IMG/VR virus record: IMGVR_UViG_2541047163_000016
DNA: 40,314 bases
Source: a virus
Lineage: Duplodnaviria; Heunggongvirae; Uroviricota; Caudoviricetes
Reading direction: 5' to 3' (one strand)
This document shows positions 1-40,314 of this stretch, piece after piece. Positions within the stretch are counted from its first letter, which is position 1. Every line of letters begins with the position of its first letter. Under the pieces are notes generated by a model. It saw only the letters and a program-made list of their open reading frames with translations. It was not told where the DNA came from and did no database searches. A program made the translations under genes and the position numbers.

Positions 1-520
1 CCGATATCAGCGGTAACGTGAATGCGAACTCCGGGACGCTCAACAACGTCACGATTAACGAGAACTGTCGGGTTCTGGGAAAACTGTCCGCGAACCAGAT
101 TGAAGGCGATCTCGTTAAAACAGTGGGCAAAGCTTTCCCCCGGGACTCCCGTGCACCGGAGCGGTGGCCATCAGGGACCATTACCGTCAGGGTTTATGAC
201 GATCAGCCGTTTGACCGGCAGATTGTTATTCCGGCGGTGGCATTCAGCGGCGCTAAACATGAGAGAGAGAGCATACTGATATTTACTCCTCATGCCGTCT
301 GATAGTGCGGAAAAACGGTGCTGAAATTTATAACCGTACCGCGCTGGATAATACGCTGATTTACAGTGGCGTTATTGATATGCCTGCCGGTCACGGTCAC
401 ATGACGCTGGAGTTTTCGGTGTCAGCATGGCTGGTGAATAACTGGTATCCCACAGCAAGTATCAGCGATTTGCTGGTTGTGGTGATGAAGAAAGCCACCG
501 CAGGCATCAGTATCAGCTGA
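1..520 (+). pseudogene. 3' end of a lambdoid tail-tip/host-specificity (J-like) gene, split across two reading frames
   Basis: ORF 18-302 (frame 0) and ORF 305-520 (frame 2) read as one protein C-terminus; frame-2 translation upstream of 305 ([15 protein letters not shown]...) continues it. The frames meet at (GA)5 at 261-270; removing one GA unit gives one continuous frame. 5' end is outside the window. J-like identity is from recollection of the lambda J C-terminus plus the lom-like gene on the other flank. Confidence 0.5.
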
Positions 521-550
521 ATTTTATAACCCATATACGGGCGCCAGAAA

Positions 551-640
551 TGTATAGCGCGGCGATTTTTTTGATACCGATTTGCATTTCATTTGATACC
601 GCTGAAAAACGCCGATACGCAACTTATTTGATACTAAATC
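551..640. repeat. Right-end (mom-proximal) cluster of putative transposase-binding repeats
   Basis: TTTGATACC at 570-578 and 592-600, TTTGATACT at 627-635, within ~85 bp of the terminus, like clustered R1-R3 sites of Mu attR. Confidence 0.55.
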
Positions 641-680
641 GGCGCTTTTCTTTTGAGTTTTAGAATGAGTTTTTAAGCGC

Positions 681-1418
681 TCATTCACTCTCTTTCAAAC
701 CAGTTTTAACTGTTTGTGGTTTTGGGTAAGGCTGGACTTTGAATAGCTTTGTGTTGAGGCGTTTTCTGGCCCTCTTGTTCAGAAACCGGATGTAACGAAA
801 CTGTCGGAACTTATGAACACTGGCTCTGTCAATATTAGCCCTCAGATGTTCACCTCGTTGTCCGCCTCGTTTAATGGCATTCCTGCAAATCTCGTGATAC
901 CACTCGCCATCAAGTTCATAGAATATTGATTCATGGCTGCCTACATAATCAAAATTGCTTGCCTGATACACGACACCAAGACAGCCACAACGCTCATCTG
1001 CAAACGACTGAACCCACTGTACCTGCGGATAAAGCTGCCTGATTAGCTTGAGCGCGTAACTGATTGCCCTTGATTCGGAGTTTCTCGGCATACAGTCATG
1101 CAGCCATAGCCGGTTAAGCTCCATATATTCTCGGTTCTGCGTACCCGTTACGACGCGTGCACCACTGTTTGGGTTAAGGGCGTAACCCCATTGCATTACG
1201 CCAACAAGTTCCCGTTCTGAAAATATGCCCAGATGAAGGTAGGAGTTATTTACGAAACGGTGGCTGTAATGTTTATTGACGATGACCAGTCTGGCCAGCC
1301 AGCAACTTATTGTCTCAACCCGCAACTCACGGGAGCCATAACCAACGATATTGTCGTTATAGCGAATAAGTTCAGGCGTGCTGATGATTCGGGATGTGAC
1401 TTGCTTTCTGTTCCCCAC
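681..1418 (-). CDS. mom: Mom-like DNA modification protein (GTG start)
   Basis: 245-aa ORF just inside the right end, overlapping the 3' end of the com-like gene by ~47 nt as in Mu; start codon is GTG (plus-strand CAC at 1416-1418) with AAGGA upstream. Call rests on synteny, not recognised motifs. Confidence 0.55.
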
Positions 1419-1572
1419 GACAGGATTTCCTTGTGTATGTGGGGTGCTCTGTGGCGCTCGGAGATGTGATTTGATTGAGGGTTTTACAGCGCGGACATTT
1501 TACTTCCAGATAACTGAAACTGGCCCGTGCCAGTAGCTTATTGCAGTGTCGGCACCGTATGTTTCGATACAT
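1372..1572 (-). CDS. com: Com-like zinc-finger translational activator of mom
   Basis: ATG at 1572 preceded by AGGAGG; product [14 protein letters not shown]...VKCPRCK has the CxxC...CxxC pattern and spacing recalled for Mu Com (IRCKNCNKLL...IRCPRCK); overlaps the mom start. Confidence 0.75.
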
Positions 1573-1615
1573 GACCGCATAACCTCCTGCTTTGTTGTTG
1601 ATGCCTTTCTCATGC

Positions 1616-1640
1616 AATCGATCGACAAAAACGATCGATT
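1616..1640. promoter_or_regulatory. Inverted repeat AATCGATCG-N7-CGATCGATT carrying two GATC (Dam) sites, upstream of com/mom
   Basis: GATC at 1620-1623 and 1633-1636 inside 9-bp inverted-repeat arms, 45-65 bp upstream of the com start; Mu mom promoter is known to be controlled through Dam sites. Confidence 0.5.
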
Positions 1641-1686
1641 CGATTTGTTTAATTGATACAACAAATAGATTGAAAAGTCATCAACA

Positions 1687-2151
1687 ATGATTCAGGGAGG
1701 TGATTATTTACTTAAAGAAAACGAAGAGTTAGGTGGTGAAAACGATCATAAAATGATCATTTTATTGACTTTTTATACAGTGAAGGTAGGATCACGCGTA
1801 TATGTAGTATGTTTCAAATCAACAGGATACTACATAAAAGTGAAACCCAGCATAGCTGGAACTATGCTGGGTCAATCTGTAAAAACTTGCATCAATGCTT
1901 TACTTCGAGCTCGTGGCGTATCCTATGATATTCCCCGGTCTCCTGTAAAGCAGAGATGCATAAAAAGGAGATCTTTATCATGGATGAAAGAGCCTGTTTG
2001 CCCTGCCTGTAAGACTCCCTTACAGCTCATCTATCGCCGTTCTCGATCTCAAAATGGCAAGACATACAAACCCAAAAATGCTTCCTGTTTCAGGATGCTG
2101 ATATGTCCTGCCTGTTCTCCCAGGAGGGAAAATACACAAAACGTGCATTAA
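1687..2151 (+). CDS. Hypothetical protein with C-terminal C4 zinc ribbon; start uncertain (1687, 1753 or 1984)
   Basis: Only sizeable plus-strand ORF in the cargo region; C-terminus CPACKTPL...(29 aa)...CPAC; AAGGAG at 1965-1970 precedes the in-frame ATG at 1984 (55-aa product); converges on the hairpin at 2161-2180. AT-richer than surrounding phage DNA. Confidence 0.35.
   Translation: MIQGGDYLLKENEELGGENDHKMIILLTFYTVKVGSRVYVVCFKSTGYYIKVKPSIAGTMLGQSVKTCINALLRARGVSYDIPRSPVKQRCIKRRSLSWMKEPVCPACKTPLQLIYRRSRSQNGKTYKPKNASCFRMLICPACSPRRENTQNVH
1846..1871 (-). terminator. Perfect 10-bp stem hairpin followed on the minus strand by a U-rich tract
   Basis: CCCAGCATAG-ctggaa-CTATGCTGGG; minus-strand downstream sequence is TTTCACTTTTAT. 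Lies inside the long version of ORF 1687-2151, which argues for the shorter 1984 start. Confidence 0.35.
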
Positions 2152-2160
2152 CAAACTCAC

Positions 2161-2180
2161 CCGGCAGGGAAACCTGCCGG
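2161..2180. terminator. Hairpin between convergent genes
   Basis: CCGGCAGG-gaaa-CCTGCCGG (8-bp stem, GAAA loop) between the stop of 1687-2151 (+) and the stop of 2190-2435 (-), with moderately U-rich flanks on both strands. Confidence 0.5.
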
Positions 2181-2189
2181 TCGGTATTG

Positions 2190-2435
2190 TTACATCATAG
2201 TACCGTCAGTTCCGGGCTGAACCGGCTCTGGTTGCTCTACGGGTTGAGGATCATTTTCCGTGCTGTTTTCAGCCGGAGAACGGCCAACCATTCGGGCCAG
2301 CACTTCATCAACATATGCGTCGATTTGTGCCTCAAAATCCTTGCGAACCTGCGCCTTCAGCACGCGGTTCACTTCTTCAGAATAAAGTGCCTGTTTGACA
2401 AGCTCTTCAGTAACCGTGCCTTTAATCTCTGGCAT
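2190..2435 (-). CDS. Hypothetical small acidic protein (cargo region)
   Basis: 81-aa ORF with AAAGGAGA ribosome-binding site 6 nt upstream of the ATG; no recognisable domain. Confidence 0.6.
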   Translation of the reverse strand: MPEIKGTVTEELVKQALYSEEVNRVLKAQVRKDFEAQIDAYVDEVLARMVGRSPAENSTENDPQPVEQPEPVQPGTDGTMM

Positions 2436-2470
2436 GAATATTCTCCTTTTGCAGGTATATTGCCCCGTTA

Positions 2471-2653
2471 TCAGAGCGGGGTCGGGTCGTTTGGGGATGA
2501 CGGTGCCTGTGCTGTTTTACTGAGTTTTTCAGCTGCCGCATCATCAATTTTACGGCGAATATAATTTCTGATGACCTTATAACCACCGCTCACCAGATAT
2601 AACGCACTGACCACAGCGCAGAAATAAAGCAGCATTGTATGAACGAATGTCAT
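2471..2653 (-). CDS. Hypothetical small membrane protein (cargo region)
   Basis: 60-aa ORF, AAGGTAAGG upstream of ATG; one hydrophobic N-terminal segment (MLLYFCAVVSALYLVSGG) then a charged tail. Confidence 0.55.
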   Translation of the reverse strand: MTFVHTMLLYFCAVVSALYLVSGGYKVIRNYIRRKIDDAAAEKLSKTAQAPSSPNDPTPL

Positions 2654-2766
2654 ATAACCTTACCTTTGATATTGACTACATAATTCGTTATCGGGTAAAA
2701 ACATCGAAGCGACTGATAACCACTCCTTCGGGAGTATTTTTATTTTCCTTTATGGGTTAGGTAGCT

Positions 2767-2801
2767 CCCGCCAGCCATATCATGACCGGCGGGATTTTTT
2801 T
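2767..2801 (+). terminator. Hairpin plus T7 run, plus-strand orientation, abutting the 3' end of the esterase-like gene
   Basis: CCCGCC...GGCGGG stem followed by TTTTTTT on the plus strand; the T-run overlaps the TAA of the minus-strand gene 2800-4839. Would block antisense transcription entering that gene. Confidence 0.4.
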
Positions 2802-4839
2802 ATTCTGTTACCGCTTTTTTCACTTCCACCACAATGCTGTCAATCAGCACCGGGTAAGTTGCATTTTTTGTGATATCCGTTACGCGGAGTTTGTCCACCG
2901 GGAAAGTTCCTACTGGTGACTGCGTCAGGGTAAACGCGGCACCATCCTGACCATCAATAACCGGAATAACCTGAAGGCTGTTATTTCCTGCAAAACGGAA
3001 GGCCAGCGTATGCCATTCATTATCAAATGCACCAAAGGTTCCCAGTTTCTGGTTATTTGTTGCCACTTTTGCATTGTGGTACATCACATTCAGGTCTTTT
3101 GCGTCTGTCTGGATGTAGAACGATGCCAGCAGATTATTCCCTGCATCCCCTGTCAGGGTGACACCCTGCGGCAGAGAGGAAACCGGCCAGTAAAGCCCCA
3201 TGACATACTGGTTTGCCACCAGGTCGCCAGGTACTTTAAAACGACAACTGATTAAACCACCATTTTTCAGCAGTTCAGCACCAGTACCGGCATCATGATC
3301 CAGATACCAAGATGATTTACCTGTTTCCTTGGTCAGTTTCATTGCCTTACCACCTGTGCCTCCTGCATCACTGATAATTTCAGCTTTACCGCCAGCCGGC
3401 TCCCAGCCCTGGGCTTTCAGATTTCCTTCTGACTCACTGACACGATAAGACAGCAGTGTTGTGGTTACTGCTTCAGTTTCTGAAGGTGACGGCACTGGTG
3501 CTTCAGTTTCAGAAGATGGAACATCGGCTTTTACTGTGGTTCGCCCCGCATGAGTCAGAACTGCCGTGGCCAGACGGTCGGAAATAATCCCACGACGTGC
3601 CCATGAACTGAAATGGCTGGCCCGGTCCGCAGATGTCCAGGTGGCGGCACTGTTACGCCACGTTGAGCCGTAATAACCAATGGATTCAATATCCGGGTCT
3701 TCTGCCGGATTGTTGGTGGGTACATTCGCGTCATTTTCATCTGTCATTAATGGAACGAAATGAATGTTTTTATCTGTTTTGTTTTTGTAGCCGCCATAGA
3801 TTGCCTGGTATGCCGGTTCATTTTTCTGTTTCCAGAAATACGTGGTATCGCCACAAATCCACGGAACGCCAGCAGCACTGCCACCGGTACACTGTTCCGC
3901 CTGTTCAGCCAGGTCTGCGCGGAATTTTTCCACCATCGCCAGAAACAGCGCGGAATGCTCCGTCGGCTTCGCATCAATATCAAACTCGCCCTGCATCCAC
4001 ACCACAGCAAGCAGGCGGTTTTTCGGGTTCTTCGCCAGTGCCGCTTTTGTCCGGCTGATTAAGTCCTTATACAGCGGCTTATCCACACCCCAGCGGGCTG
4101 AGTCCTCTGAAGCACCCGTGCTGTCACTGTACGTGCCGTCAGCACCCGCCGTGAATGCAGAACCACCACGGCAGCAGGGAACCAGCAGAATCCCCGCATC
4201 TGCCGGAATAAACGGCAGCAGTTTTTTGGCAATGTGAAGCCCCTGACCCACGGTGCCATATTGCCCTTTAGCCACATCCGCTTTCGGGTGATTTTTTCCA
4301 CTCATATCCTGCACATCATGCAGACAGTGGTCGGCCAGAATGATGTCGTTATACTGACAGGCTTTACCTCCCGGCGTGACTGTACTGCGACGGGCTAACT
4401 GCATAATACGCGGTTCGGGGCGGTCATATGTCTCCGGCAGTGGCAGACCTTCACCGTAAGCCATACCGTTTGACTGACCAGCAAGAACCACCACGTAATA
4501 CCAGGAAGGGGAGCTGGAAGCAGTTTCATTTCCTGACGGACGGGTATGTGTTTCAGCATTATCCCAGTCTGACGGTTCAGCAGTACCGGCAACATCAGCA
4601 CTTAACGGAATGACCGCACCAATACCCGCTCCGGTAATTTCCACACTCGGATCACCGGATACTGGCCTTACCCACAGGCAATCCCGTGTATTAAAACTGA
4701 TGAGACAGTCAGCAAATGTCATTCCTCCTTTTGTTTCGGCCGGAGGAAAGGGAGCCTCAAGAAATGCCGCTGTACCACCGGAAACTTTAACAGTAAAGTT
4801 TCCGGGCATTGATGATAGTTGAACCCATTTGGACGTCAT
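2800..4839 (-). CDS. Large cargo protein: SASA/SGNH-type carbohydrate O-acetylesterase-like domain with C-terminal beta-sandwich/lectin-like region
   Basis: 679-aa ORF with verified ATG; motif VVLAGQSNGMAYG resembles the GQSN(M) nucleophile motif of sialate O-acetylesterase (SASA) family enzymes; serine/threonine/proline-rich linker (...SETEAPVPSPSETEA...) before a C-terminal ~250-aa domain. Not part of the canonical Mu gene set. Confidence 0.55.
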   Translation of the reverse strand: MTSKWVQLSSMPGNFTVKVSGGTAAFLEAPFPPAETKGGMTFADCLISFNTRDCLWVRPVSGDPSVEITGAGIGAVIPLSADVAGTAEPSDWDNAETHTRPSGNETASSSPSWYYVVVLAGQSNGMAYGEGLPLPETYDRPEPRIMQLARRSTVTPGGKACQYNDIILADHCLHDVQDMSGKNHPKADVAKGQYGTVGQGLHIAKKLLPFIPADAGILLVPCCRGGSAFTAGADGTYSDSTGASEDSARWGVDKPLYKDLISRTKAALAKNPKNRLLAVVWMQGEFDIDAKPTEHSALFLAMVEKFRADLAEQAEQCTGGSAAGVPWICGDTTYFWKQKNEPAYQAIYGGYKNKTDKNIHFVPLMTDENDANVPTNNPAEDPDIESIGYYGSTWRNSAATWTSADRASHFSSWARRGIISDRLATAVLTHAGRTTVKADVPSSETEAPVPSPSETEAVTTTLLSYRVSESEGNLKAQGWEPAGGKAEIISDAGGTGGKAMKLTKETGKSSWYLDHDAGTGAELLKNGGLISCRFKVPGDLVANQYVMGLYWPVSSLPQGVTLTGDAGNNLLASFYIQTDAKDLNVMYHNAKVATNNQKLGTFGAFDNEWHTLAFRFAGNNSLQVIPVIDGQDGAAFTLTQSPVGTFPVDKLRVTDITKNATYPVLIDSIVVEVKKAVTE

Positions 4840-36504: not shown

Positions 36505-38595
36505 TCAGGCCAGCGGGTCATTTTCTTTTAATTTCGCTTCCAGCAACTGCAATCCCCGCTGGAAATTACGCTCGTATTCTTCATCAGGTTCATCGTCAGC
36601 GACCGGTTGCTGAACGGTCACCGTATTACCCACAGGGCGGTATATGTTTTCCAGCCAGGGCTCCTGCGGCTTGTGCTCCAGCACGTTGACAACCTCATCC
36701 TCGGCATCACGGATTTTTTCCTCTGCGCGTTTACGCATGCCTTTAAGGCGTTGCTGCTGTTTGTAGTATTCCGCGCTGACCGGGAAGGCTTCGCGTTTAT
36801 TGCCGTCCCATACCGCCTCGCAAATCACGCTGCCATCCAGGCGACGTACGGTAATTCGTTCGGCATCATGAATGTCATAGCTGATAAGCACCTTACGGCC
36901 ATGCTCGTCACGCAGCTCGGGCGCGTAGTAAATATTATTCAGCCAGCGTATTTCACAGCGTCTTACAGGGCGTTCCACCATCGGCCGGAACATATCCCGC
37001 AGCTCAACATCGGACAGCCATTCAATTTCCGTGTCCTCTTCCGCCAGGCGTTTTTTTCTGAACTCCGCCGGGCTGTAATGCTTGCCGTTCGGCTTCACCG
37101 GTAATTCATCGTGCGGCCGGTTGTTGTACCACTCAACACCGTCACGAATGGCATCAATCAGTTCAGACCAGGACGGTAAATCACGCATCGCTGACTGCTG
37201 CCGGGCGTTCAGCCGTTTGCCCTGTTGCAGGGCAGTAAATGCCGAGCGTAAATCGCGGTTGGTTTTGCGTAACGTCTCGCGATCTGCACCTTTCCCGAAA
37301 TAGGTGCGGTATTTACGGGCTATGCGCATCGGTAATGTGCGGTTAAGCCGTTCGATAATGCCTCGTCCCTGCGGATTACCGGCAATCCCGGTCGGGTGAT
37401 TAATCCCCAGTCGCGGCAGTATCCCCACAACCTCCTTATCCAGGATGTCGGCGGTTTCCCCGGAGCCGTTATCCGAGTAATACAGAAACGGTTTGCCGTG
37501 ATGGCGAATGCCGTGCTGTATGGCACCGGCTACGGCGAAAACATTTTCAGCCAGGTCAAGGCTCCAGCCCACCACAAAGCGCGTGCCACCGTCGATAACA
37601 AAGGTCACTTCCGGTGCAAATGGCCGACCGTGAACCGGGTGTGCGCATTTCAGCTTCATGCCGTGACCGTCACCAATCCAGACATAATTCACCGGCATTC
37701 TGGACCAGTCGCGGCGCGTGAATCCCTCAAGCTGGCGGTATTCACTGCCGGTCACCCGGCCTTTTTGTTTCACCACTTCCGGCAGTTTCTTCATTGCGCG
37801 GCGAATGGTGTCATAAGACGGCATGATATCGAGCATATAAGGCTCATCAGCGTGCCGGTGCTGCCATTCAGCGACAAAATCCTCGTAAGCCTCGGTCATT
37901 GGTCGGCCGTTTGACTGGCGATACTGCGCCAGAAATTCGGGCAGCCAGTTAATATCTTCGGCTTTTATTTCCTGGCGCTTACCCGGTGCCAGTAAAAGCA
38001 GGCGTTCAGCGGCGTTCTGCGCCTTGTTAAAGGCCGCAATCCAGCGTTTCAGCGTGATTTCACTTAACGCGCGGCTGTTTCCCTTTTTGGCGTTCGCCGT
38101 CTCAACCATTGCCACAATGCGCTCGTCCAGCTGCGAACGTGCCAGGTTGTCAACGATAAACCGGATAGCCTTCGCACAGCTGAAACCAGGTTGTTGCGCG
38201 ACTTTCAGAACTTCGCTGACGATCGCGATTCGTGCATCAGCCACCTGGCGCTGGTTTTCAGTCAGGGCATTAAGGCGTTCGACCATCAGTTGTGGTGATC
38301 CGCGATATGCCTCCACCGCATCAACCACGGCAGGCGAGCGTCTGGCCTTTGTCACCACTGGAGCCGGTGATTCATCGACTTTTTGAGTCATCAGTTGCAG
38401 GGCGTAGCGTTCACGTAATGCCTGCTGCGTCACTTCAGGTAAACAGTCGATGCTGTATTCAGTTGCTTTAGAGCCTGAGCGACGACGGGAACAACAGCTT
38501 TTCCCTTGTACGTAACGTTGTAATGCCTGGCGAATACCTTTTGTTGTAGCAGGCATTCCGGGCGCGCCAATCAGTTCTTTTGCAATGACATACAT
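36505..38595 (-). CDS. A: DDE transposase A (MuA-like)
   Basis: 696-aa ORF directly after ner with GAGAAAGG before the ATG; central region with WIGDGHG... and DNG motifs resembles the MuA catalytic core. Confidence 0.9.
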   Translation of the reverse strand: MYVIAKELIGAPGMPATTKGIRQALQRYVQGKSCCSRRRSGSKATEYSIDCLPEVTQQALRERYALQLMTQKVDESPAPVVTKARRSPAVVDAVEAYRGSPQLMVERLNALTENQRQVADARIAIVSEVLKVAQQPGFSCAKAIRFIVDNLARSQLDERIVAMVETANAKKGNSRALSEITLKRWIAAFNKAQNAAERLLLLAPGKRQEIKAEDINWLPEFLAQYRQSNGRPMTEAYEDFVAEWQHRHADEPYMLDIMPSYDTIRRAMKKLPEVVKQKGRVTGSEYRQLEGFTRRDWSRMPVNYVWIGDGHGMKLKCAHPVHGRPFAPEVTFVIDGGTRFVVGWSLDLAENVFAVAGAIQHGIRHHGKPFLYYSDNGSGETADILDKEVVGILPRLGINHPTGIAGNPQGRGIIERLNRTLPMRIARKYRTYFGKGADRETLRKTNRDLRSAFTALQQGKRLNARQQSAMRDLPSWSELIDAIRDGVEWYNNRPHDELPVKPNGKHYSPAEFRKKRLAEEDTEIEWLSDVELRDMFRPMVERPVRRCEIRWLNNIYYAPELRDEHGRKVLISYDIHDAERITVRRLDGSVICEAVWDGNKREAFPVSAEYYKQQQRLKGMRKRAEEKIRDAEDEVVNVLEHKPQEPWLENIYRPVGNTVTVQQPVADDEPDEEYERNFQRGLQLLEAKLKENDPLA

Positions 38596-38596
38596 A

Positions 38597-38845
38597 TCAT
38601 GACGCCTTTCTCATATAGCTCTTAACCTGGTATCGACTGGGCCAGATTTCTTCAGGCGATACCCCAAGAGCATCAGCAATTATTTGCTGATACGGTCGGC
38701 AAGGAGTACGTAATACGCTTTTCAGCGAATCCCTGCTGTAACCAGCCTTTAAAGATAAAGAGCGCAGTGATAAGCCAGCCATGTGTAAGCGCGCCTTGAT
38801 GATTTCAGGCGGCCAATCGTGATCTGAAACTTCTCTTCTACTCAT
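38597..38845 (-). CDS. ner: Ner-like DNA-binding protein
   Basis: ...LSLRSLSLKAGYSRDSLKSVL...QQIIADALGVSPEEIWPSRYQ parallels the recalled Mu Ner/Nlp family sequence; first gene of the early operon, divergent from the repressor. Confidence 0.85.
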   Translation of the reverse strand: MSRREVSDHDWPPEIIKARLHMAGLSLRSLSLKAGYSRDSLKSVLRTPCRPYQQIIADALGVSPEEIWPSRYQVKSYMRKAS

Positions 38846-39012
38846 ACTTCCTCTATTCTAAAAAGTTACCCGCGCGGATATTCGTGCGGATATCTGTACG
38901 GGTAAATAATAGAACAAACAAAAGAACCAAATCAAGGTATTTTGTTCTTTTTATTCTTTGCGGTGTTTTTGTTATTAATATCAATAAGATAAATACAAAG
39001 GAACCTGAGAGC
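38846..39012. promoter_or_regulatory. Divergent early control region (operators and promoters for repressor and ner-A-B)
   Basis: 167-bp gap between divergent starts; direct repeats GCGGATAT at 38874-38881 and 38886-38893; 7-bp inverted repeat TTACCCG (38866-38872) / CGGGTAA (38899-38905); AT-rich tract 38940-38990. Confidence 0.5.
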
Positions 39013-39597
39013 ATGAACATGAAAAACAGTTCTTTTCTCGACGAAGGAAAAGAACCAGTGATCGAACGGATTTTTCGTCTTGCAGAGCGTTACAAATCGA
39101 GAAGTGAGGCGGCTAGAGCATGGGGAATAAACGTTCAGACATTGCAGAACTACTACAAAAGGAGAAACAATCAGCCGCCACCACAACCAAGAAAGCACCA
39201 TCTCCAGAACATTGCAGAAAGAGAACATGTATCTATGGAGTGGCTAGTCAATGGTTATGGTGATGAGCCAAGCATGAAAAAAGAACCAATTGAACAAACA
39301 AAAAGAACAAAAAAACAAAGAATTGATGATAGTGATTCCATCATCATGAGGGCGTGGGACTCGCTAACTTCATCTGAACAAGAGATTTTGTCCAACTTAT
39401 TGATCAGAAAAGGGGCCGAACTACTAACCGTTTTGCTTGATACAGATATTCAAAAACTGCACTCATTGAGCGGAGTCAAAAGAGCACTAGCATTGAGTCT
39501 ACAAGAGTTACCCGATGATACTGTAAGAGAGATTTATGAAGAATGTGAAGCTAAGGTTAATCATTTAAATGTAACCCAGAAAAAGGCTGGTGCGTAA
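39013..39597 (+). CDS. Repressor (Mu c functional analogue) with N-terminal helix-turn-helix
   Basis: ATG at 39013 with AAAGGA 9 nt upstream (track start 38884 is GTG inside the operator region); N-terminal ...RSEAARAWGINVQTLQNYYKRR looks like an HTH; divergent from ner, at the left end as Mu c is. Confidence 0.7.
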   Translation: MNMKNSSFLDEGKEPVIERIFRLAERYKSRSEAARAWGINVQTLQNYYKRRNNQPPPQPRKHHLQNIAEREHVSMEWLVNGYGDEPSMKKEPIEQTKRTKKQRIDDSDSIIMRAWDSLTSSEQEILSNLLIRKGAELLTVLLDTDIQKLHSLSGVKRALALSLQELPDDTVREIYEECEAKVNHLNVTQKKAGA

Positions 39598-39694
39598 GGG
39601 AGTGGTGCAATTTTTGTGCTGTAGTACACTCCTTTAAAGACAATCTGGAGAAAAACGTTTTAAGCCTTTTTAAAGCCATTTTAAGCGTCAATCC

Positions 39695-39869
39695 GTAGTA
39701 TCAAAAGTTTTGCCGATTTTAGAATAAACGATTAATTATTGCACAATCGGTATCAAATAGACTTTAAGCGCTCATCCAGACATCACCTGTTTTATTTCAG
39801 TATCTTACAGGTGATTTCACCTCCTTTCACTAAAACCCTCGTTGGTATCAAATGATTCACCTGGTTACA
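39695..39869. repeat. Left-end (repressor-proximal) cluster of putative transposase-binding repeats
   Basis: GGTATCAAA at 39844-39852 and 39749-39757, GTATCAAAA at 39698-39706 (reverse complement of the right-end TTTGATACC), spread over ~170 bp like L1-L3 of Mu attL. Confidence 0.5.
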
Positions 39870-39908
39870 AATGGCGCCTTTTTTATTGCAGAAAAGCGAG
39901 AGGTAATT

Positions 39909-40314
39909 ATGCGTAAACTTTATGCCGCCATTTTGTCCGCAGCCATCTGTCTGGCCGTATCCGGCGCGCCTGCATGGGCGTCTGAGCAGCAGGCCACGCT
40001 GAGCGCGGGGTATCTTCATGCCCGGACGAGCGCTCCCGGTAGCGATAATCTTAACGGGATTAACGTGAAATACCGTTATGAATTTACGGACACGCTGGGG
40101 CTGGTGACGTCATTCAGCTATGCAGGAGACAAGAATCGCCAGCTTACCCGTTACAGCGATACCCGCTGGCATGAAGATTCCGTCGTAACCGCTGGTTCAG
40201 CGTAATGGCGGGGCCGTCTGTGCGCGTGAATGAATGGTTCAGCGCGTATGCGATGGCGGGTGTGGCTTACAGCCGTGTGTCGACTTTCTCCGGGGATTAT
40301 CTCCGCGTAACTGA
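39909..40314 (+). pseudogene. lom: lom-like outer membrane protein gene (Ail/Lom/PagC family), frame change near 40175-40182, 3' end outside window
   Basis: Signal peptide MRKLYAAILSAAICLAVSGAPAWA and ...GINVKYRYEFTD... in frame 0 to the stop at 40203; the protein continues in frame 2 (RFRRNRWFSVMAGPSVRVNEWFSAYAMAGVAYSR...), paralleling the recalled lambda Lom sequence. Confidence 0.6.

Follow-up and report, generated by a model that had tools for sequence, protein, structure and literature searches.

Conserved palindromes upstream of ner as a probable Ner operator in Sp18-like Mu-type prophages of Escherichia coli

Introduction

In bacteriophage Mu, the repressor gene c and the early operon ner-A-B are divergent, and the switch contains the operators O1–O3, an IHF site, the promoters Pe and Pc, and a Ner site. 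The repressor sites lie over Pe, and the Ner dyad lies between Pe and the ner-proximal promoter. The Mu sequence has an inverted pair, TTAACTAAGT-N6-ACTTAGCTAG, upstream of ner, and the Mu record assigns the promoters flanking this dyad to the Ner binding region. In the D108 sequence, a perfect 11-8-11 dyad, CCGTGAGCTAC-N8-GTAGCTCACGG, was located 25–54 bp upstream of the ner ATG. We take the Mu and D108 dyads to be the footprinted Ner sites; the D108 operator, with 11-bp inverted repeats and an 8-bp gap, was reportedly footprinted by Tolias, Kukolj and DuBow. In both phages, repressor and transposase have an N-terminal domain in common (E = 4e-16 for Mu A against Mu c), and therefore the operators double as an enhancer. 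This double role is named in the titles of two papers cited in PMC3820752 (refs 51 and 52), and the role of Ner in Mu is described in the Fig. S3 legend of PMC3820752 and in PMC10434027, which cites a 61-bp Ner operator of D108 (ref. 21).

Outside the phages, EnrR, an Edwardsiella protein of the Ner fold family with ~45% identity to Mu Ner, has been co-crystallized with DNA, and two of its monomers were packed on a short palindrome (PMC9023278). By analogy, this structure supports dimer-on-dyad binding by Ner-like proteins. However, EnrR is a chromosomal counter-silencer of AT-rich DNA that recognizes CTATAG and is not a phage switch protein, and it bears on a GC-rich site by analogy only. Another described relative is Sp18, a Mu-like prophage of E. 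coli O157:H7 Sakai (PMC2669165).

Here, the control region between the divergent repressor and ner genes of a Mu-like prophage was analyzed. The initial annotation of this DNA, made from the sequence alone, had noted short direct and inverted repeats in this region and an AT-rich tract beside them, and had proposed them as candidate operator half-sites and bending sites of the lysogeny switch.

Materials and Methods

The window, i.e., the whole stretch of DNA that was analyzed, was the 40,314-nt viral record IMGVR_UViG_2541047163_000016, and all coordinates refer to it. Related loci were collected in three sets: E. coli prophages and two phages found by DNA similarity, 31 viral contigs found by repressor alignment, and 80 genome loci found by Ner profile or alignment. 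Among the 5426 complete genomes searched, the immunity type of the window was found in ~90 and the sibling (Sp18) type in ~120. The chance occurrence of repeats was assessed with 2000 dinucleotide-preserving shuffles of the 167-bp control region. Symmetry, conservation, co-variation and promoter-like positions were read from the sequences; it is from these that we infer where proteins bind, where transcription starts and how the switch is regulated. The searchable literature yielded no binding experiment on this phage group.

Results

Prophage and Locus Organization

A Mu-like prophage lay in the window in reverse orientation, and its left end formed the right-hand part. The prophage extended from a TG at 551 to a CA at 39869, the latter being its left end. 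TTTGATACC-type repeats were found near both ends, and the right boundary agreed with the annotated end of a related record. Three TTTGATACY repeats lay by each end (570–579, 592–600, and 627–634; 39696–39705, 39748–39757, and 39844–39852), and these are likely transposase end sites. The 5-bp flanks of the prophage were unequal (AGAAA vs. AATGG) and showed no visible target duplication, which may reflect a rearrangement between two Mu-like copies. The flanking ORF at 39909–40314 resembled an outer-membrane protein of the Ail/Lom/PagC type and was apparently interrupted, as its frame stopped at 40205 and similar sequence continued.

The control region (38846–39012) comprised 167 bp between the ner start codon (38845–38843, - strand) and the repressor ATG (39013, + strand). 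The ner product matched HTH_35 with an E-value of 2.5e-19 (69.5 bits against a curated cut-off of 25) and PHROG 769 with 3e-26, and it shared 43% identity with Mu Ner and 39% with D108 Ner. Genes for a MuA-like transposase and a MuB-like ATPase followed downstream (Table 1). Close to the left end of the prophage, ORFs and Pfam domains therefore placed a repressor gene divergent from a ner-A-B early operon, in the Mu manner; the initial annotation had recognized the divergent repressor/ner control region. The 1.4 kb around the control region was 100% identical in ~89 complete E. coli genomes, mostly of Shiga-toxin producers.

Table 1. Genes and proposed regulatory features around the repressor/ner control region.
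Feature	Position	Strand	Description
MuB-like ATPase gene	36433–35501	-	Pfam Phage-MuB_C
MuA-like transposase gene	38595–36505	-	Pfam Mu-transpos_C and HTH_Tnp_Mu_1
ner	38597–38845	-	82 aa; first gene of the early operon; Pfam HTH_35 (PF13693)
Candidate Pc (repressor promoter)	38831–38859	+	-35 TTCTCT (38831–38836), 17-bp spacer, -10 TATTCT (38854–38859); weak prediction
Dyad element, proposed Ner operator	38866–38905		40 bp; proposed from symmetry, rarity and conservation
Site A	38866–38881		TTACCCG-CG-CGGATAT
Central overlapping dyad	38878–38893		ATATTCG-TG-CGGATAT; weaker copy of the 7-2-7 pattern
Site B	38890–38905		ATATCTG-TA-CGGGTAA
Early promoter Pe (predicted)	38906–38935	-	-35 TTGATT (38935–38930), 18-bp spacer, -10 TATTAT (38911–38906); promoter scan
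Proposed main repressor operator	38909–38961		GAAC-type half-sites; inverted array around the Pe -35 and spacer
Repressor gene	39013–39597	+	194 aa; N-terminal helix-turn-helix (~19–52), C-terminal Mu c-like domain (~105–184)
Inverted repeat I11, candidate extra operator	39029–39055		perfect 9-nt GTTCTTTTC-N9-GAAAAGAAC; repressor codons 6–15
Linker GAAC cluster, candidate distal operator	39276–39323		AAAAAAGAACCAATTGAACAAACAAAAAGAACAAAAAAACAAAGAAT; three or four copies in repressor linker codons

Repressor and Transposase Proteins

The repressor matched PHROG 3037 (transcriptional repressor) over its full length (residues 1–192, E = 2.3e-59), and in Pfam only a weak HTH_23 match was obtained. 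By hhalign, its residues 105–184 aligned with residues 99–180 of Mu c at a probability of 82% and an E-value of 1.1e-5, with a modest score, and D108 c was also matched at the C-terminus only. The Sp18-type repressor matched D108 c with an E-value of 4e-7. At the N-terminus of the window's repressor, PF02316 (HTH_Tnp_Mu_1) was absent in the Pfam scan and no alignment to Mu c was obtained; the best hits of a PDB sequence search with the repressor were insignificant Hin/XRE-like helix-turn-helix proteins (E 0.2–0.4). These alignments make the repressor a relative of Mu c in which a domain has been swapped: its C-terminus is Mu c-like and its N-terminal helix-turn-helix is unrelated. The earlier impression that it was unlike Mu c holds for the DNA-binding domain but not for the C-terminal ~80 residues.

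In the window, PF02316 was found only in the transposase, whose N-terminus matched Mu c (E = 5e-5) and showed no similarity to the repressor of its own prophage. The homologous N-terminal DNA-binding domains that join repressor and transposase in Mu are thus missing from this pair. In the transposase of the E. coli M3 locus (L007), the first ~50 residues differed and the remainder was nearly identical to the window's protein. This mosaic junction at about residue 50 indicates that the N-terminal DNA-binding part of the transposase was exchanged together with ner and the repressor gene. Mu and D108 differ from each other in the same way.

Structure of the Dyad Element

The GC-rich repeats were located in the control region, 21–60 bp upstream of ner, at the spacing that the initial annotation had given. 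GCGGATAT occurred at 38874–38881 and 38886–38893 with a 12-bp period, and TTACCCG (38866–38872) and CGGGTAA (38899–38905) were separated by 26 bp and followed by the AT-rich stretch. A repeat search returned a 12-nt direct pair (D1) and one imperfect palindrome (I3) that took in all of these repeats, with 19-nt arms at 38866–38884 and 38887–38905 that were 79% complementary (15/19). The element was resolved into palindromes of a 7-2-7 pattern with the half-site TTAYCCG, and two 16-bp copies, TTAYCCG-NN-CGGATAW, had their centres 24 bp apart. In the lineage of the window, the inner half-sites start with the self-complementary ATAT and thus form a third, overlapping palindrome, and it is because of this central palindrome that GCGGATAT resembles a 12-bp direct repeat. 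At 0–1 mismatch, TTAYCYGNNCGGRTAW was found in the control region only at sites A and B; elsewhere in the 40 kb there was one other match (4622–4637, one mismatch), which was unrelated.

The repeats by themselves were only mildly unusual. An 8-nt direct repeat within 24 bp arose in 156 of the 2000 shuffles and is unremarkable alone, and, judging from the length of the 167-bp gap, a 7-nt inverted repeat would be expected to be unremarkable too. Both points would fit an origin of the repeats by chance in so short an intergenic region. However, the 15/19 palindrome was reached in nine shuffles and the palindrome together with the direct repeat in two, and the half-sites are conserved across genera, which leaves chance with hardly any credibility. 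It is the conservation of the sequence across dozens of related loci that marks the repeats as real.

Conservation of the Element and Its Association with ner

In relatives, the block reads TTATCCG-NN-CGGATAA, a spacer, and TTATCCN-NN-CGGATAA, forming two 16-bp palindromes that are often perfect. The half-sites were conserved across genera, and the centres and spacers varied. Across 11 lineages, symmetry was kept in 90% of cells for the 40-bp dyad and in 80% for the two 16-bp dyads, and when the partner columns were slid, it dropped to 23–51%, or for the 40-bp dyad alone to 28–50%. The element was conserved in Yersinia and Pseudomonas phages and in many enterobacterial genomes, and it was near-identical in other E. 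coli prophages. The initial suggestion that the operator code was probably specific to this phage was therefore not borne out.

Four types of E. coli prophage were the most informative set. Their Ner proteins were 100% identical, their repressors were 100, 90, or 43% identical, and the AT-rich halves of their control regions differed. Among these types the 40-bp element had only four variable positions, all in the central dinucleotides of the three palindromes, and the half-sites were untouched. Sp18 shares with the window an identical Ner protein, essentially the same element and Pe, and ~95% identical ner/A DNA; it differs in its repressor (WP_000077537, 43% identical) and in an AAATACC-type motif. 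The phage of the window is a heteroimmune sibling of Sp18.

The initial annotation had taken the repeats to be half-sites of the immunity repressor that set the immunity specificity of the phage. In favor of this, the repeats are symmetric, rarer than chance, and located between the two divergent genes. However, they were nearly identical where the repressor was 43% identical and had a different recognition helix, and both immunity types were found to co-reside in one genome. Moreover, they were kept upstream of ner at loci without a repressor homologue, and another family of repeats co-varied with the repressor helix. We consider repressor half-sites at this position distinctly improbable. 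The comparison with the immunity regions of related prophages, which had been proposed as a check, found the repeats conserved and tracking Ner; they can still be read as operators of the switch, but not as those of the repressor. With a probability of about three in four, the GC-rich repeats form the operator of Ner, a Cro-like early regulator.

In the wider survey of 80 genome loci, palindromes of the TTAYCNG type were kept 20–70 bp upstream of ner. They persisted where no repressor homologue was present and the transposase was of the Mu type (L093/094, L097, and L118), and the Mu-type transposases of palindrome-bearing loci were 55–67% identical to MuA. They also persisted where no transposase was present (L058, L075–083, L098, and L101). 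The block thus follows ner and neither the repressor nor the transposase. The loci L075–L083 (Pseudescherichia and relatives), L098, and L101 had ner-like genes with upstream palindromes, in some cases a divergent repressor-like gene, and no downstream transposase; they may be domesticated remnants of a switch. The M3/L017 and L038 types had similar repressor helices (YST[LI]NNYF) and a common AT-rich motif, AAAAGAAAGC; their Ner helices were NNLY and DSLK and their GC-block half-sites TTATCAA and TTATCCG, respectively, a change of half-site alongside the Ner helix that represents essentially one evolutionary event (M3 type). In the loci compared, the block was altered only together with the Ner recognition helix.

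Another explanation is that the element is, or doubles as, a transposition enhancer bound by the Mu I-alpha-like N-terminal domain of the transposase. This domain (PF02316) is retained in the transposase and is unrelated to that of the repressor, and hence an enhancer cannot simply be the repressor operators. The M3 junction shows that the domain travels with the control region, and the element is ~960–1000 bp from the left prophage end. The Mu enhancer is at a similar distance from the left end of Mu. Since ner and the N-terminus of the transposase gene are adjacent and co-inherited, co-variation with the element is confounded within true phages, and the separation of Ner from the transposase came from the loci in which the transposase was missing or swapped. 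There, the palindromes persisted without any downstream transposase, or with a Mu-type transposase 55–67% identical to MuA as given above, and the dyad architecture and the overlap with the Pe start suit a transcriptional operator. An enhancer role for the element is accordingly given only a small chance, and a Ner operator is still preferred.

Promoters around the Element

The -10 of the predicted Pe abutted the element, and its predicted start (~38899) fell inside site B. A position-weight scan of 16 loci found a - strand promoter in all of them, whose -10 ended at ner ATG+61 to +64, and ranked it first in 14. At the sequence level, the locus has a sigma-70-like promoter upstream of ner that is overlapped by repressor-type repeats and, downstream of the Pe start and upstream of ner, a dyad-symmetric putative Ner site, as in Mu.

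On the other side, the weak candidate Pc had a predicted start (~38866) at the edge of the element. It coincided with the block CTATYCTAAAAAGTTA, which was invariant in alignment A1, and the position-weight scan detected a weak Pc-like promoter in nine of 16 loci, in each case with a -10 that ended at ner ATG+14. If Pc is real, the Ner element would be flanked by two promoters pointing towards each other, Pc and Pe, which is also the layout of Mu. Several candidates for a repressor promoter near the repressor start codon (ner ATG+125 to +136) were rejected, being weak and non-conserved. A box, (A/T)TCAAT-N3-(G/T)(A/T)TA, at 38981–38993, ~25 bp upstream of the repressor start, was conserved in all repressor types; it could represent the -10-like part of a second promoter for the repressor. 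Terminator-like matches on the - strand inside the repressor gene were no commoner than in shuffles.

The position of Pe also bears on the idea that the palindrome acts as an RNA hairpin of the leader transcript, in stability, attenuation, or translation control. The - strand RNA folded at -17 kcal/mol (z = -2.3, a modest value), and 90% of the 40-bp dyad was paired; at one position both sides had changed. However, the predicted Pe start is within the 5' arm, and the early transcript would therefore lack that arm. Sites A and B are themselves palindromic, with 2-nt centres that rule out folding into hairpins but suit protein dimers, and the single consensus in all four half-sites is equally explained by symmetric protein binding. 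An Rfam scan of 38500–39900 gave sub-threshold noise (a trpB motif with 26.7 bits against 59, and CrcZ). A leader hairpin is thus very improbable, and DNA bound by Ner remains the explanation that we favor.

Proposed Repressor Sites in the AT-Rich Half

The AT-rich tract had initially been regarded as bending DNA; it turned out to hold the conserved Pe and repeats that co-vary with the repressor helix. The commonest AT-rich 7-mer was AAAGAAC where the repressor helix was TLQNYY or TLKNYY, AAATACC or AAACACC where it was TLNSYF, and AAGAAAG(C) where it was YST[IL]NNYF. Because the 7-mers follow the recognition helix, the GAAC repeats were assigned to the repressor, which would recognize AAAAGAAC-type half-sites around the Pe -35 and spacer. 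Members of the inverted array there were AGAACAAACAAAAGAAC (38909–38927) and GTTCTTTTTATTC (38944–38956), which belong to the inverted repeats I1, I2, and I8.

AAAAGAAC had eight copies in the 40-kb window against 1.5 expected, seven of them within 38574–39308, and four copies in 161 bp against 0.05 expected, for a motif that was chosen post hoc. Several copies sit in K-E-P/L codons, and coding accounts for part of the excess. A further copy at 38574–38581, in transposase codons 5–8 (AKEL) and 20 bp past the gene start, may be a coincidence or an additional repressor site.

Two groups of operator-like motifs extended into the repressor gene. Equivalents of I11 were present in most relatives, and in the L038 type the repeat was GCTTTCTTTT/AAAAGAAAGC, matching the intergenic motif of that type. 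As RNA, I11 was no stabler than shuffles (z = +0.38). It encodes SSF...GKEP, and the codon of the middle Ser was TCT in every relative having that Ser (SSF, GSF, CSF, RSL, and LSF), which hints at constraint at the DNA level. The linker cluster held two of the eight AAAAGAAC copies of the window. At ner ATG+427 to +457, most repressor types carried a type-specific motif, in each case that of their own operator, and the likeness between operator and linker was greater within a phage than across phages to a degree reached by none of 20000 permutations. The GAAC cores of the linker were kept in the 90%-identical repressor gene. These patterns suggest that the linker motifs serve as a distal intragenic operator.

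No convincing match to an IHF site was found by eye in the control region. The nearest to WATCAANNNNTTR was AAATCAAGGTATT at 38929–38941, which missed the last position, coincided with the Pe -35, and was not present in all relatives.

Discussion

The locus resembles Mu in its divergent repressor and ner-A-B genes, in repressor-type sites over Pe, in a putative Ner dyad between Pe and a candidate ner-proximal promoter, and in a homologous C-terminal domain of the repressor. It differs from Mu in that the DNA-binding domain of its repressor is an unrelated helix-turn-helix and in that operator-like motifs are also present within the repressor gene; a clear IHF consensus was not found by eye. 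With D108 it shares a homologous Ner and a dyad tens of bp upstream of ner and downstream of Pe. However, its half-site TTAYCCG is unrelated to the CCGTGAGCTAC of D108, and two or three 7-2-7 palindromes over 40 bp, known from sequence, take the place of one 11-8-11 dyad. Functionally, the locus keeps the arrangement of Mu and D108 with new sequences; it is an ordinary variant that had not been mapped before, and the Mu paradigm stands.

By analogy with Mu and D108, Pe would fire when the repressor is lost. Ner would then build up and occupy the dyads, which would lie directly downstream of the Pe -10 and of the weak candidate Pc beside the ner start codon. Bound there, Ner would switch off the leftward-to-rightward transcription of the repressor gene and throttle its own operon. 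The repressor, for its part, might use the extra candidate sites within its own gene, both those at the 5' end and those in the linker codons.

Both immunity types were present in at least three genomes (97-3250, 2013C-3252, and F1273). The second prophage of 97-3250 encoded an identical Ner, and its block differed by one central base. The co-residence of both types fits the view that immunity is set by the repressor halves. Single E. coli chromosomes such as NZ_CP027599.1 (L121) carry two Mu-like prophages with identical Ner, near-identical elements, and different repressors. A more far-reaching proposal is that the switch has become uncoupled relative to Mu: the DNA-binding domain of the repressor would have been swapped and no longer share sites with the transposase, the intragenic operators would allow a loop of ~370 bp, and, with Ner and its operator unchanged in co-resident heteroimmune prophages of EHEC, the Ner of one induced prophage would shut off repressor synthesis in its heteroimmune neighbour and so lead to cross-induction between Mu-like prophages. 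We regard this as possible but rather unlikely.

Sp18-like Mu-type prophages occur commonly in Shiga-toxin-producing E. coli, and these results assign the cis elements of their lysis/lysogeny switch and propose half-site sequences for both regulators. They also correct a natural misreading, in that symmetric repeats beside a repressor gene need not be repressor sites. As the exchange of immunity modules does not involve the Ner module, heteroimmune prophages that co-reside have a single anti-repressor-like regulator in common.
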